NCBI RefSeq assembly: GCF_050320075.1
Contig: NZ_CP190018.1
DNA from: Escherichia coli
GTDB taxonomy: Bacteria; Pseudomonadota; Gammaproteobacteria; Enterobacterales; Enterobacteriaceae
Direction: 5' to 3' (one strand)
DNA: 64,000 bases
The number at the start of each line of letters is the position of its first letter. Position 1 is the stretch's first letter. The notes under the pieces were generated by a model. The model was not told where the DNA came from. It ran no database searches and saw nothing but the letters and a program-made list of their open reading frames with translations. Of this stretch, positions 12,153-16,614 are shown piece by piece. A program made the position numbers and the translations under genes.

Positions 12153-12917
12153 TCAGAGTCGCTGTTTTTCAGCGATATGGTGCTGACAAGCGGTGATAAA
12201 GCCCTCGAACAATATACGCGAAAGCGCGTACTCGCTACTGTTCCATTCCGGGTGCCACTGTACGCCCAGCGCAAAAGGATGATTGATGACGCTAACCGCC
12301 TCAACTAAGCCATCCGGCGAGCGAGCTTCAACACGCAACCGTGGGCTAACGACCTTTGCCCCTTGTCCATGCAGAGAGTTTACCCAAAAGTTGCTACATT
12401 CAGGTAACAACGCAGACAGTAATCCCCCCTCTTCAACCAGAACTTCATGCGACGGCGCATATTGCTGCTCCACCGGCAGTTCGGGATCTTCCCGATGTTC
12501 CAGCAATTCAGGCTGTTCGCACAGCTTGCGATGCAACGAACCACCGGTTGCCACCACCAGTTCCTGTAAACCCCGGCAGATGGCGAAAATGGGGATGCGC
12601 CTTTCGAGTGCGGCATTAATTAACGCCATGCTCAGAAGATCACGCCCGGGATCGGCGTCAGGCTCATCGCCGTTTTCACCATATAGGTGCGGCTGCACAT
12701 TGCTGGGACTACCAGGAAGATAAATACCATCGAGTTTCGGCAAAAGTTGTTCAAGTAATGACGGTTCCGCCAGCGCATGTGGCAGCGCAATTGGCAAGCC
12801 GCCTGCGTGGATGATGGCATTCAGGTACTTTTCTTGCAGAGTCTGGGTCGCATGACCCTTAAGCCTGTTCCTGCACATTACGACACCGATAACCGGATTG
12901 TTCATTATATTTTCCAT
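12153..12917 (-). CDS. puuD: Gamma-glutamyl-GABA hydrolase (class-I glutamine amidotransferase-like)
   Basis: In-frame ATG at 12917 (MENIMNNPVIGVV...) gives 254 aa. Confidence 0.9.
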   Translation of the reverse strand: MENIMNNPVIGVVMCRNRLKGHATQTLQEKYLNAIIHAGGLPIALPHALAEPSLLEQLLPKLDGIYLPGSPSNVQPHLYGENGDEPDADPGRDLLSMALINAALERRIPIFAICRGLQELVVATGGSLHRKLCEQPELLEHREDPELPVEQQYAPSHEVLVEEGGLLSALLPECSNFWVNSLHGQGAKVVSPRLRVEARSPDGLVEAVSVINHPFALGVQWHPEWNSSEYALSRILFEGFITACQHHIAEKQRL

Positions 12918-13128
12918 GCTCAATCTCACAAAGTGGACTAAATTATCGCCATTACTGCGCTTTAAATGACCTTTATGTTCAATATTTTTTCAATCTAGCA
13001 GTGGGTTTTCATTTTTGCAAACTCAATTTAACATTTGACAAACATTTAGTTTGCATACAGATTCGAATGGTGGTCATTATATTTTACGCTTTGATAACGA
13101 GCGGAAAACAAACCAAAGGCGAAGAATC

Positions 13129-14547
13129 ATGGAAACCAATATCGTTGAAGTAGAGAACTTTGTTCAGCAGTCAGAAGAGAGGCGGGGTAGCGCCTTTACG
13201 CAGGAAGTGAAACGCTACCTGGAGCGCTACCCGAATACACAATATGTTGATGTTTTACTTACCGATTTGAATGGTTGCTTCCGTGGAAAACGTATTCCTG
13301 TTTCAAGCCTTAAGAAGCTCGAGAAAGGGTGTTATTTCCCGGCCTCGGTATTTGCAATGGATATTCTGGGTAATGTAGTAGAAGAAGCGGGCCTGGGTCA
13401 GGAAATGGGCGAGCCGGATCGTACCTGTGTTCCTGTTCTCGGTTCCTTAACCCCTTCTGCCGCCGATCCAGAGTTTATAGGTCAGATGCTCCTGACCATG
13501 GTCGATGAAGATGGCGCTCCCTTTGACGTTGAGCCGCGGAACGTTCTTAACCGCCTGTGGCAGCAGCTGCGCCAGCGCGGATTGTTCCCGGTCGTAGCGG
13601 TAGAGCTGGAGTTCTATTTACTGGATCGCCAGCGCGACGCTGAAGGGTATCTGCAACCGCCCTGCGCGCCCGGCACCGATGACCGCAATACACAAAGCCA
13701 GGTTTACTCCGTTGATAACCTCAACCACTTCGCCGACGTGCTCAATGATATTGATGAGCTGGCGCAGTTACAGCTGATTCCGGCAGATGGCGCGGTCGCC
13801 GAGGCCTCGCCAGGTCAGTTTGAAATCAATCTTTACCATACCGATAACGTGCTGGAAGCTTGCGATGATGCGCTGGCACTAAAACGCCTGGTGCGTCTGA
13901 TGGCAGAAAAGCATAAGATGCACGCCACTTTTATGGCGAAGCCGTATGAAGAGCACGCGGGCAGCGGGATGCATATCCATATCAGTATGCAAAATAACCG
14001 TGGCGAGAACGTGCTTTCTGACGCGGAAGGCGAAGATTCGCCGCTGCTGAAAAAGATGCTCGCCGGGATGATTGACCTGATGCCGTCATCAATGGCGTTG
14101 CTGGCACCAAACGTGAACTCGTATCGCCGCTTCCAGCCGGGAATGTATGTGCCGACGCAGGCGTCGTGGGGCCATAACAACCGCACCGTCGCCCTGCGTA
14201 TTCCCTGCGGCGATCGCCATAATCACCGCGTGGAATATCGCGTGGCGGGTGCCGATGCCAACCCGTATCTGGTGATGGCGGCGATTTTTGCCGGTATTTT
14301 GCATGGCCTTGATAACGAACTGCCATTACAGGAAGAAGTCGAAGGCAACGGGCTGGAACAGGAAGGCTTACCCTTCCCGATTCGCCAGAGCGATGCCCTG
14401 GGTGAGTTTATCGAGAATGATCACCTGCGCCGCTATTTAGGCGAACGCTTCTGCCATGTCTATCACGCCTGTAAAAATGATGAGCTGTTGCAGTTTGAGC
14501 GCCTCATCACAGAAACAGAAATTGAGTGGATGTTGAAAAACGCGTAA
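13129..14547 (+). CDS. puuA: Glutamate–putrescine ligase (glutamine-synthetase family)
   Basis: Track ORF starts at a TTG at 13051; the in-frame ATG at 13129 (METNIVEVENFVQQ...) preceded by a purine-rich stretch gives 472 aa; divergent from puuD. Confidence 0.9.
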   Translation: METNIVEVENFVQQSEERRGSAFTQEVKRYLERYPNTQYVDVLLTDLNGCFRGKRIPVSSLKKLEKGCYFPASVFAMDILGNVVEEAGLGQEMGEPDRTCVPVLGSLTPSAADPEFIGQMLLTMVDEDGAPFDVEPRNVLNRLWQQLRQRGLFPVVAVELEFYLLDRQRDAEGYLQPPCAPGTDDRNTQSQVYSVDNLNHFADVLNDIDELAQLQLIPADGAVAEASPGQFEINLYHTDNVLEACDDALALKRLVRLMAEKHKMHATFMAKPYEEHAGSGMHIHISMQNNRGENVLSDAEGEDSPLLKKMLAGMIDLMPSSMALLAPNVNSYRRFQPGMYVPTQASWGHNNRTVALRIPCGDRHNHRVEYRVAGADANPYLVMAAIFAGILHGLDNELPLQEEVEGNGLEQEGLPFPIRQSDALGEFIENDHLRRYLGERFCHVYHACKNDELLQFERLITETEIEWMLKNA

Positions 14548-14849
14548 TACCCCTTGCGGGGTTGTTTCATCGGCCTGAGCGGAGCCAGGCCTGACATTTG
14601 CTGGTAATCCAGACATTTCCCGGATGTCGCGTTATGGAGCGCAGGCGGCAACGGGCTTCCGTTAACGATTAAGACTGTGACGAGGAAATGAGATGATGCC
14701 GATGATTAAATCCCCGCATGGCGAGGGAGGCTGCGTATGCGCCCCTCCTGCGACTGACTGGACTCCGCCCCCTTTGCTTCCCTTGCTAAACAGGTTTGAT
14801 TTCAGGTCGACACGACCGCAAACCTTATTACGCAGGGGAGGCAGCAACT

Positions 14850-16235
14850 ATGGCTATTAATTCATCACTGACTATTGCTGCGCAATCTGGCAAAACCCGT
14901 CTGCGAAAATCACTGAAATTGTGGCAGGTGGTGATGATGGGTCTGGCCTATCTCACGCCGATGACCGTATTTGATACTTTTGGTATTGTCTCCGGCATTA
15001 GCGACGGTCACGTTCCGGCGTCCTATTTGCTGGCGCTGGCGGGCGTGCTGTTTACCGCTATCAGCTACGGCAAACTGGTTCGCCAGTTTCCGGAGGCCGG
15101 TTCGGCCTATACCTACGCGCAAAAGTCGATTAACCCGCACGTCGGATTTATGGTCGGCTGGTCATCACTGCTGGATTATCTCTTTTTGCCAATGATCAAC
15201 GTTTTGTTGGCGAAAATCTATCTCTCCGCCCTCTTCCCGGAAGTGCCGCCGTGGGTGTGGGTGGTAACCTTCGTCGCCATTTTAACCGCCGCGAATCTGA
15301 AGAGCGTCAACCTGGTCGCTAACTTCAATACCCTGTTTGTACTGGTGCAAATCTCCATCATGGTGGTGTTTATCTTCCTGGTGGTTCAGGGACTGCATAA
15401 AGGAGAAGGCGTTGGCACCGTCTGGTCACTTCAGCCGTTTATCAGCGAGAACGCGCACCTGATCCCGATTATTACCGGGGCGACGATTGTCTGTTTCTCC
15501 TTCCTCGGTTTCGATGCGGTGACCACGCTTTCGGAAGAGACGCCGGACGCCGCACGCGTGATCCCGAAAGCCATCTTCCTGACGGCGGTATACGGCGGCG
15601 TTATCTTTATCGCTGCGTCGTTCTTTATGCAGCTGTTCTTTCCCGATATCAGCCGCTTTAAAGACCCGGACGCCGCACTGCCTGAAATTGCGCTATACGT
15701 CGGCGGCAAGCTCTTCCAGTCGATTTTCCTCTGTACCACGTTTGTGAACACGTTAGCGTCTGGCCTGGCGTCGCACGCCAGCGTGTCGCGTCTGCTGTAT
15801 GTGATGGGGCGTGACAATGTGTTTCCGGAGCGCGTGTTTGGCTATGTGCACCCGAAATGGCGGACTCCGGCACTGAACGTCATTATGGTCGGGATTGTCG
15901 CGTTGTCAGCGCTGTTCTTTGATTTAGTCACCGCGACAGCATTGATTAACTTCGGTGCTCTGGTGGCATTTACCTTCGTAAATCTGTCGGTGTTTAATCA
16001 TTTCTGGCGGCGTAAAGGAATGAATAAAAGCTGGAAGGATCACTTCCACTATTTGCTGATGCCGCTGGTTGGCGCGCTGACGGTGGGTGTGCTGTGGGTT
16101 AATCTCGAGTCAACGTCACTGACACTCGGTCTGGTATGGGCTTCGTTAGGCGGCGCATATTTGTGGTATCTGATCCGCCGCTATCGCAAAGTGCCGTTGT
16201 ATGATGGTGACAGAGCGCCGGTGAGCGAAACGTAA
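14850..16235 (+). CDS. puuP: Putrescine importer (APC-family amino-acid/polyamine permease)
   Basis: In-frame ATG at 14850 ([22 protein letters not shown]...) preceded by aggggagg gives 461 aa; multi-TM hydrophobic protein. Confidence 0.9.
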
Positions 16236-16368
16236 TAGTCGGATGCGCGGCGCATTATCCTGCCTGAGGGTAATGCACCGCGCCATTAACTATAAAAAGA
16301 TGTATGACCCGGATCACGAGTGCTATCATCCGCCCTTATGCTTAGCGCATTAACCCCAGGGGGAAATA

Positions 16369-16614
16369 ATGAACCACGATATCCCGCTAAAATATTTTGA
16401 TATTGCCGATGAGTACGCGACCGAATGCGCAGAGCCTGTCGCAGACGCTGAACGCACACCGCTGGCCCTCTACTTCCAGTTACTGCTCACCCGTTTGATG
16501 AACAATGAAGAGATCAGCGAAGAAGCCCAACATGAAATGGCTGCTGAAGCGGGGATTAATCCCGTACGCATTGATGAGATCGCAGAGTTTTTGAATCAAT
16601 GGGGTAATGAGTAA
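16369..16614 (+). CDS. ymjA: Small protein YmjA (DUF2543)
   Basis: 81 aa, [40 protein letters not shown]...; synteny between puuP and sapA. Confidence 0.8.

Follow-up and report, generated by a model that had tools for sequence, protein, structure and literature searches.

A conserved structured leader and the small open reading frame ymjE in the puuA-puuP spacer of Escherichia coli suggest translational coupling to puuP

We analysed a stretch of 64,000 nucleotides of Escherichia coli DNA (NCBI RefSeq assembly GCF_050320075.1, contig NZ_CP190018.1), hereafter the window, in which puuA is followed by puuP, the gene for a putrescine:H+ symporter. PuuP is the main importer for putrescine catabolism, and to our knowledge control of puuAP is currently described at the puuA promoter only (PuuR, ArcA, FNR and sigma-S). 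The two genes lie on the + strand and are separated by 302 bp (14548-14849), in agreement with a preliminary description of the sequence, which gave a spacer of about 300 bp between co-directional genes. The spacer contains a structured RNA leader and a small open reading frame (ORF), ymjE, the end of which overlaps the start of puuP. We consider it rather likely that the spacer serves puuP as its 5′ leader and leader ORF on a puuA-ymjE-puuP mRNA, and that translation of puuP is coupled to leader-gated translation of ymjE. The features of the locus, in window coordinates, are as follows.

13129-14547, + strand: puuA, with stop codon TAA at 14545-14547.
14549-14570, + strand: hairpin 1 and its U-rich tail, a terminator-like site found by scanning (folding free energy, dG, -7.9; z -2.0).
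14562-14704, + strand: multi-helix structured leader of ymjE-puuP, delimited by its match to covariance model R1, sequence identity and pairing counts.
14564-14570, + strand: 5′ strand of helix 1, GUUUCAU in E. coli and GCAUCAU in most genera; its partner is AUGAUGC in ymjE (14693-14699).
14572-14591, + strand: helix 2, which is hairpin 2, GGCCUG-AGCGGAGC-CAGGCC; the invariant loop GAGCGGAGC contains GGA.
14600-14614, + strand: helix 3, GCUGG-UAAU-CCAG(A)C (dG -5.5, z -2.7).
14619-14655, + strand: helices 4 and 5, CCCG/CGGG enclosing GUCGC/GCGGC, with a conserved GGA in the loop (AUGGAGC).
14656-14659, + strand: anti-Shine-Dalgarno strand of helix 6, CUUC, partner of GAGG in the Shine-Dalgarno (SD) sequence of ymjE; 98% paired and essentially invariant.
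14682-14688, + strand: SD of ymjE, GAGGAAA; CGAGG is invariant in 25 genus-level sequences.
14693-14860, + strand: ymjE leader ORF, identified by RefSeq annotation, Pfam, detection with a sequential peptide affinity (SPA) tag, conservation of frame and stop, and codon-position signature.
14703-14722, - strand: published AtoC motif GCCATGCGGGGATTTAATCA, located as an exact match; positive in chromatin immunoprecipitation (ChIP) with overexpressed AtoC (PMC3118216).
14774-14845, + strand: long hairpin in ymjE that sequesters the puuP SD, identified by fold energy, covariation and absence of indels.
14834-14841, + strand: SD of puuP, AGGGGAGG, identified by sequence and alignment.
14850-16235, + strand: puuP, with start codon ATG at 14850; the ORF is intact (461 codons).

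The ymjE frame begins with tandem ATG codons at 14693 and 14696, of which RefSeq uses the second (14696-14860, 54 amino acids). Its TAA stop codon (14858-14860) lies 10 nt into puuP, and the frame overlaps puuP by 11 nt from the ATG on. The preliminary description had noticed this 55-codon frame overlapping the puuP start, which is indeed present at 14693-14860, but knew of no annotated element at this position; RefSeq does annotate one, ymjE (b4742, K-12 1359177-1359341, between puuA and puuP). The protein matches Pfam PF23692 (YmjE-like) with 147.6 bits (cut-off 27) over residues 1-54 of 54. Chromosomally SPA-tagged YmjE has been detected, and ymjE, located immediately 5′ of puuP, was positive in a tetracycline ribosome-profiling screen (VanOrsdel et al., 2018; PMC6001520). 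In the literature puuAP is treated as one putrescine-induced operon (among others in PMC8674398).

For comparison we used 80 loci with close PuuA relatives from Enterobacterales, one genome per species, and located puuP in each. The two genes are co-directional in nearly all of them, with spacers of 80-560 bp. Counts of upstream ORFs (uORFs) refer to the 76 puuA-puuP loci with a spacer below 700 bp or, where stated, to the 74 loci in which an SD and an ATG could be called; the GAGGA/GAGGT core served as the anchor for locating each uORF. Helix and covariation counts refer to 25 genus-level sequences and their RNAalifold consensus, and z-scores compare each E. coli fold with 200 shuffles.

The ymjE ORF is maintained by selection across species. 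A uORF starting from a conserved GAGGAAA-N-AUG is found in 67 of the 76 loci, from Escherichia, Klebsiella, Raoultella, Enterobacter, Citrobacter, Cedecea, Buttiauxella and Pluralibacter as well as Trabulsiella, Franconibacter, Serratia, Rahnella, Rouxiella, Ewingella, Hafnia and Chimaeribacter. The distance from its ATG to that of puuP takes 14 values between 157 and 211 nt, every one of which equals 1 modulo 3, and the uORF stop is at +10 of the puuP ATG in all 67 loci. Over the 74 loci, frame 0 contains 65 stops (mean 0.88), all of them the terminal stop of the uORF, and the other two frames average 3.0 and 2.1 stops. TAA is used in 62 loci and TGA in 2; loci L061, L066 and L068, scored without a stop because their puuP start had been placed 48 nt too far upstream, agree once the start is corrected. 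The stop is formed by codons 3 and 4 of puuP, which give T-AA or T-GA in 67 of 67 cases: codon 4 is AAT or AAC in 65 and GAT in 2, and codon 3 always ends in T, with eight different codons in use (ACT, GCT, ATT, GAT, TTT, AAT, CAT and CTT). Among the nine loci without the uORF, codon 3 ends in T in one. Because the T-ending codon 3 tracks the uORF, we conclude that selection acts on the stop as such, which does not simply follow from the PuuP sequence. The long ymjE-type uORF is missing from nine short-spacer loci, several of them from Serratia.

Within the uORF the constraint is unevenly distributed. In the first 13 codons the entropy at third positions is 0.85, compared with 0.33 and 0.45 at the other two, a pattern of third-position variation that argues for peptide-level constraint on the N-terminal MMQMFKYPHGEGG. 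A second motif, R-x-[KDE]-Y-G-P, is conserved at the amino-acid level in uORF peptides and has been lost entirely in Escherichia. The middle of the ORF is practically unalignable (23% identity to E. coli). The Enterobacter-type ortholog scores 18.3 bits against PF23692 and the Serratia type gives no match, so the model covers only Escherichia-like members and the YmjE family reaches far past it; NCBIfam has no model for YmjE or its orthologs. In database searches, proteins named YmjE were found only in Escherichia/Shigella, and members from Serratia, Rouxiella and Ewingella appeared sporadically as 'hypothetical protein'.

The 3′ half of ymjE is predicted to be a covarying hairpin that locks the ribosome-binding site of puuP. 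The 5′ strand, UUGCUUCCCUUGC, is rich in C and U, encodes PLLPLL and pairs with the puuP SD, GCAGGGGAGGCAG; the inner helix in E. coli is CAGGUUUG/CAAACCU. The E. coli segment 14763-14856 folds with a dG of -38.1 kcal/mol (z = -4.8), a value matched by none of the 200 shuffles. In the consensus, the helices ACCCCC/GGGGGG(U) and CAGGUUUGC/GCAAACCUG contain seven pairs with compensatory changes, and the 93-nt hairpin stretch is free of indels in the 25 sequences. Separate alifold analyses of two further sets (Serratia type 1 with Franconibacter, and Serratia type 2 with Rahnella) also show a UUUCCCC-like anti-SD strand pairing with the puuP SD. The frame had earlier been described as Pro-rich, and it is so because the C-rich anti-SD strand is translated, the proline codons being the translation of that strand. 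The mid-uORF C-G skew is +0.21, with more C than G in 66 of 67 loci, which is partly due to the anti-SD C run. Escherichia YmjE has a PPP run (codons 25-27, window 14765-14773; PPPP in E. albertii) on or just before the anti-SD strand, which is not conserved outside Escherichia and Pseudocitrobacter. Judged from its position, a pause dependent on elongation factor P (EF-P) at PPP would uncover the puuP SD, in Escherichia only.

It could be argued that YmjE is a small protein acting in trans, for example as a modulator of PuuP or PuuA, in which case the overlap with puuP would be ordinary gene packing and the RNA structures secondary. The tagged protein is detectable (PMC6001520), and about 13 N-terminal residues (MMQMFKYPHGEGG) as well as R-x-[KDE]-Y-G-P are conserved at the amino-acid level. 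However, the middle of the ORF is hypervariable in both sequence and length, the RNA hairpin and the puuP ribosome-binding site determine its C-terminal half, and the only residue that never varies is the proline specified by the anti-SD CCC. The protein has no hydrophobic segment and a very low abundance, the second motif is gone from Escherichia, and Pantoea keeps the leader while dispensing with the ORF. We therefore regard a function in trans as quite unlikely.

Upstream of ymjE, the leader (from approximately 14562 up to the start of ymjE) has a cross-genus identity to E. coli of 76%, compared with 46% at four-fold degenerate sites of puuA. Covariance model R1 finds one match in the window (14562-14704, 147 bits) and one match per locus in 38 Enterobacteriaceae loci. 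A scan of 12800-16400 against Rfam 15 at E ≤ 10 returned noise matches only (at most 21 bits, E at least 0.67). Over the six helices of the leader plus the two of the 3′ hairpin, 95.8% of the pair cells are paired, compared with 31-45% when the partners are slid; double-change pairs number 12, compared with 3-6 in the slid controls, and no shuffle reached the observed values. The fold is assigned to the mRNA of the + strand because of its G-U pairs. A conserved antisense or minus-strand RNA was considered and rejected, since the G-U pairs fall on the + strand.

Covariation is found in helices 2, 3 and 4. Three pairs of helix 2 show compensatory changes, one of them occurring as CG, UA, GC and UG; in helix 3, 12 of 25 sequences have U-A in place of an A-U pair, and GCUGG/CCAGC becomes GCAGG/CCUGC in half the sequences. 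The states of a helix-5 pair are UG in 13 sequences, UA in 10 and CG in 2. Helix 1 is 95% paired and nearly invariant, with two-sided changes solely in distant sequences fitted by the covariance model. The GAGGA/GAGGT core of the ymjE SD is also found in the Serratia and Rahnella clades. Helix 2 corresponds to the second GC-rich hairpin of the preliminary description, which had placed it about 25 nt on from the first; it starts 10 nt past the end of hairpin 1, or approximately 22 nt from start to start. It folds with a dG of -13.1 (z = -2.5), a value reached by 4 of 200 shuffles. Taken singly, each of the two hairpins exceeds chance only marginally, and it is conservation and covariation across species that make them significant. 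Hairpin 2 was also considered as a repetitive extragenic palindromic (REP) element or a second terminator and rejected in both roles: it has no U tract, its loop is invariant, and its covarying stem lies inside a larger fold.

In Pantoea sp. BAV 3049 (locus L042, 4443-4582) the leader, matched with 36.7 bits, adjoins the ATG of puuP itself, without a uORF. In Erwinia sp. 198 (L043, 4441-4567) the leader fold is kept and the uORF is cut to 25 codons. Because the Pantoea leader abuts the puuP ATG directly, we suggest that the leader is a module for gating ribosome-binding sites in its own right, whose target would be ymjE in Enterobacteriaceae and puuP itself in Pantoea.

The conservation of the spacer might alternatively reflect a promoter or operator at the DNA level, that is, an independent ymjE-puuP promoter dependent on sigma-54 (the one given for puuP in RegulonDB/EcoCyc, possibly activated by AtoC) or on sigma-70/sigma-S. 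An independent puuP promoter was among the earlier suggestions, and there are published indications of one: puuP is among the sigma-54 promoters in RegulonDB and the motif gave an AtoC ChIP signal (PMC3118216), RpoN and RpoS are listed for puuP (PMC10100675), and it has been remarked that PuuP may have its own promoter (PMC8674398). Promoter scans revealed no sigma-70-like site in the spacers of E. coli or Klebsiella oxytoca. The sigma-54 consensus (TGGCAC-N5-TTGCW, up to 3 mismatches) has 311 matches where 350 are expected, so the pattern is not enriched, and the best match in the spacer has 3 mismatches. The sigma-54-like spacer matches, AGGCCTGACATTTGCT at 14587 and TGGAGCGCAGGCGGCA at approximately 14635, are not conserved, losing the -24 GG, the -12 GC or the spacing in other genera (Klebsiella, Citrobacter). 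The AtoC motif coincides with ymjE codons 4-10, the part of the ORF with a conserved peptide, and thus lies inside ymjE, downstream of any promoter able to drive it. The compensatory changes and G-U pairs show that it is base pairing in the RNA, and not a DNA motif, that is under selection, and deletion data suggest that puuAP behaves as an operon (PMC8674398). The accessible parts of the SMRT-Cappable-seq and Cappable-seq supplements hold no puu entries or coordinates, and a literature search pairing puuP with sigma-54 returned nothing relevant. A promoter-like site is carried by the type-2 spacers of Serratia, which is in favour of this explanation; taken together, we nevertheless hold an internal promoter to be rather improbable, and the suggestion of an independent puuP promoter is not supported by our scans.

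The Serratia/Rahnella type-2 spacers (L056 4542-4614, conserved in L056-L082) have this promoter-like site as TTGTCA-18-CAAAAT, directly followed by a strong canonical terminator, AGATAGCCGACG...CGTCGGTTAT with T8, approximately 110 nt upstream of the uORF. Promoter and terminator together could constitute a transcription attenuator or give rise to a very short RNA.

Hairpin 1, which the preliminary description had located right after the puuA stop, is found there as A-CCCC-UUGC-GGGG-U (14549-14562), a 5-bp stem with four GC pairs and a 4-nt loop. It is followed by TGTTTCAT in the DNA, and the RNA tail UGUUUCAU is interrupted, with 5 U of 8. It folds with a dG of -7.9 kcal/mol (z = -2.0), which 10 of 200 shuffles also reach. 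A consensus scan calls it terminator-like, with a chance expectation of 0.6 +/- 0.8 sites per such 800-bp region; the same scan leaves the K. oxytoca counterpart unflagged. No part of the spacer is less conserved than the hairpin 1 segment; within the first few tens of nucleotides 3′ of puuA, genera differ in GC hairpins, REP-like palindromes and insertions. We also surveyed the best hairpin 3′ of puuA in each locus, but the noise was too great to put terminator conservation into numbers, and this survey is used qualitatively only. From its sequence, hairpin 1 could be a weak terminator-like element or a stabiliser of the puuA 3′ end. In three Enterobacter and Pluralibacter-like genomes (L024, L026, L027), REP-like palindromes (GCCCGG...CCGGGC, -20 to -25 kcal/mol) are inserted within the first ~110 nt after puuA, ahead of the conserved leader, where E. 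coli has hairpin 1.

These observations bear on the idea of simple partial termination, according to which the hairpins after the puuA stop end a fixed fraction of the transcripts and so set the puuA:puuP ratio, with ymjE and the rest of the spacer being incidental. Hairpin 1 does fit a loose terminator pattern, GC hairpins or REP-like palindromes lie 3′ of the puuA stop in many genera, and a strong canonical terminator is present in the type-2 spacers of Serratia and Rahnella. On the other hand, hairpin 1 is short and its U tract interrupted, its K. oxytoca equivalent is not flagged, and the idea would place the control in the least conserved segment of the spacer. Hairpin 2 lacks a U tract and is part of a larger covarying fold, and the accessible part of the listing of Adams et al. 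(2021; PMC7815308) gives no 3′ end at the site. Simple partial termination would also leave unexplained why the frame and stop of the uORF are maintained and why a hairpin sequesters the SD. We consider it unlikely; the dominant conserved features (leader fold, uORF and SD hairpin) point to translational coupling rather than to simple partial termination. The earlier proposal of partial termination or attenuation thus holds in part: the spacer does look like a post-transcriptional control region, and hairpin 1 has the form of a weak terminator that might reduce puuP expression relative to puuA, but hairpin 2 is not a terminator and the features favour coupling. A bicyclomycin-sensitive, Rho-dependent region lies antisense to puuA (window approximately 13374, - strand; K-12 1360663 +) according to the accessible part of the same source (Adams et al., 2021; PMC7815308).

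We propose the following mechanism. Hairpin 1 with its interrupted U tract would act as a weak terminator or 3′-end stabiliser after puuA; with a weak terminator at this site, only part of the puuA transcripts would continue. The read-through RNA would fold into the leader of ~140 nt, the closing helices of which pair with the SD and the AUGAUG start of ymjE, and initiation at ymjE would therefore be gated by the leader fold. The puuP SD would be locked in the very stable hairpin, which lies wholly inside ymjE, so that ribosomes translating ymjE would have to melt it. These ribosomes would finish ymjE 8-10 nt past the puuP AUG, where re-initiation or fresh binding of a 30S subunit may follow. 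Because ribosomes on ymjE would open the puuP SD, PuuP synthesis would be coupled to ymjE translation. The translated, C-rich body of ymjE probably also shields the transcript from Rho, and its composition is compatible with Rho loading when ymjE is silent. We infer coupling, leader gating, the Rho component and terminator activity from the patterns of conservation and pairing described above.

Several observations weigh against this mechanism. Helix 1 is weakened in Escherichia, where GUUUCAU introduces a U-U mismatch, and the minimum free energy fold of E. coli uses another anti-SD partner, CAUUUCC with GGAAAUG, instead of CUUC. Helices 1, 5 and 6, which occlude the ymjE ribosome-binding site, are nearly invariant in the core set and are supported by conservation, not covariation. 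The conserved N-terminal peptide could mean a protein that acts in trans. YmjE-SPA was among the least abundant small proteins tested (Weaver et al.), which also fits weak relevance; low abundance fits a gated uORF as well. For the sense strand of the spacer, the accessible part of the Term-seq/bicyclomycin supplement of Adams et al. (2021; PMC7815308), in which puu is poorly expressed, lists neither a 3′ end nor a Rho-dependent region.

Candidate signals that may act on the leader or uORF are CsrA, polyamines acting on the RNA, the conserved nascent N-terminus and, in Escherichia only, EF-P pausing. GGA occurs in the loops of helix 2 (14581-14583) and helix 5 (14636-14638) and in the SD (14684-14686), and is invariant at these positions in the 25 sequences. 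The leader thereby shows the motif pattern of CsrA targets, namely at least two GGA, of which one or more lie in a hairpin loop and one overlaps the SD; the total of 4 GGA is not in excess of the ~3 expected in 143 nt by a rough composition estimate. Hairpins with GGA in the loop recur in the Franconibacter, Serratia and Pantoea versions of the leader, with different stems. For puuA, the accessible part of the data of Potts (2017) contains no CsrA crosslinking and immunoprecipitation (CLIP) peak, and RNA and ribosome-protected fragments are modestly up in the csrA mutant.

We speculate, with considerable reserve, that the ymjE module could be a direct polyamine sensor for the importer, either through refolding of the leader on putrescine or spermidine, or through stalling of the YmjE N-terminus (MMQMFKYPHGEGG...) on putrescine. 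The leader would then be riboswitch-like or belong to the polyamine modulon, or stalling would take place as in SpeFL with ornithine; either event would expose the puuP SD and block Rho, and the Escherichia PPP run on the anti-SD strand would add EF-P dependence. If this were true, ymjE would be a third, hitherto undescribed enterobacterial circuit in which a uORF senses polyamines, and perhaps the first natural example of an RNA or peptide that responds to putrescine.

The proposed arrangement has several counterparts among known systems. In secM-secA and in the ermCL-ermC and cat leaders, the upstream ORF likewise crosses a stable hairpin whose 3′ strand is the downstream SD, and ribosomes in the upstream ORF are expected to be required for translation of the downstream gene. 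In those systems the arrest peptide is well defined and the signal is known (secretion status, macrolide and chloramphenicol, respectively), whereas for ymjE both would be hypothetical; moreover, the ymjE stop overlaps the downstream start, which is the classical geometry of termination-reinitiation. Closer in function are speFL-speF-potE (ornithine) and mdtU-mdtJI (spermidine), enterobacterial polyamine genes that lie behind a short translated leader ORF (PMC7815308). Translation of their leader ORFs controls the downstream transporter or enzyme with the participation of Rho, and the C-rich body of ymjE would suit a Rho utilization (rut) site. They share no sequence similarity with ymjE, which is longer (54-78 codons), runs into the start of puuP and has a conserved structured leader of its own, and a Rho-dependent 3′ end is not listed for its spacer in the accessible part of Adams et al. 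(2021). The tnaC-tnaAB operon also has a leader peptide 5′ of a catabolic enzyme and a permease, but TnaC stalls at its own stop and blocks a rut site, with neither an SD-sequestering hairpin nor an overlap with the downstream start. CsrA-repressed leaders (glgC, pgaA, cstA) share with the ymjE leader the GGA in hairpin loops (GCGGAGC in helix 2, AUGGAGC in helix 5) and in the SD (GAGGAAA), whereas the GGA count of the ymjE leader is not above the composition estimate. Finally, in phage MS2 (coat-replicase and coat-lysis) and in overlapping E. coli operons, pairing closes the downstream ribosome-binding site and upstream translation opens it, with stop and start codons a few nucleotides apart. 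Unlike the MS2 cistrons, ymjE appears to exist mainly for coupling and is itself gated by a conserved leader.

The ymjE gene and the class of mechanism (secM-secA, ermCL, speFL, mdtU) are already known. What appears to be new is the role of ymjE as a conserved leader ORF coupled to puuP through an SD-sequestering hairpin, together with an RNA leader that has no match in Rfam 15. In the searchable literature we found no paper joining puuP with a uORF, a leader peptide, Rho or Term-seq, and ymjE is present there as a catalogue entry only. Our analysis points to an extra post-transcriptional layer across Enterobacterales, in which a gated leader ORF relays to a locked puuP ribosome-binding site. 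It would give the orphan small protein YmjE a concrete and testable role as a cis-acting leader ORF, and makes ymjE a candidate for joining speFL and mdtU among the few polyamine genes under uORF control. For the leader without an Rfam 15 match, we supply a covariance model and an alignment.

Within E. coli, the junction region was matched in 4374 of 5426 complete genomes, and the 502 bases around the spacer are 100% identical to strain YZLc1-3 (NZ_CP123240). In that strain puuP is annotated as a frameshifted pseudogene (L001 3403-4678), compared with the intact 461-codon ORF in the window; either the window derives from a different assembly, or that assembly contains a frameshift or a sequencing error beyond the 502-bp query. 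For window positions 14448-14949, megablast gave no match in 1052 of the 5426 genomes, so that the puuA-ymjE-puuP junction is missing or strongly diverged in about a fifth of E. coli strains.

Two further observations concern the distribution of the locus. Pseudocitrobacter vendiensis and P. faecalis (L005, L007) carry an Escherichia-like puuA-ymjE-puuP arrangement with PuuA 97-98% identical, the uORF in its 55-codon Escherichia form, and four-fold degenerate sites of puuA 0.74 identical, compared with ~0.45 in other genera; these sequence similarities suggest that the Pseudocitrobacter puu cluster was recently acquired by horizontal transfer. A record titled Chryseobacterium sp. 18061 (L072) contains a typical Enterobacteriaceae puuA-leader-uORF-puuP locus (PuuA 90%, leader match 161 bits), and this Bacteroidota-labelled assembly is probably contaminated or mislabelled.

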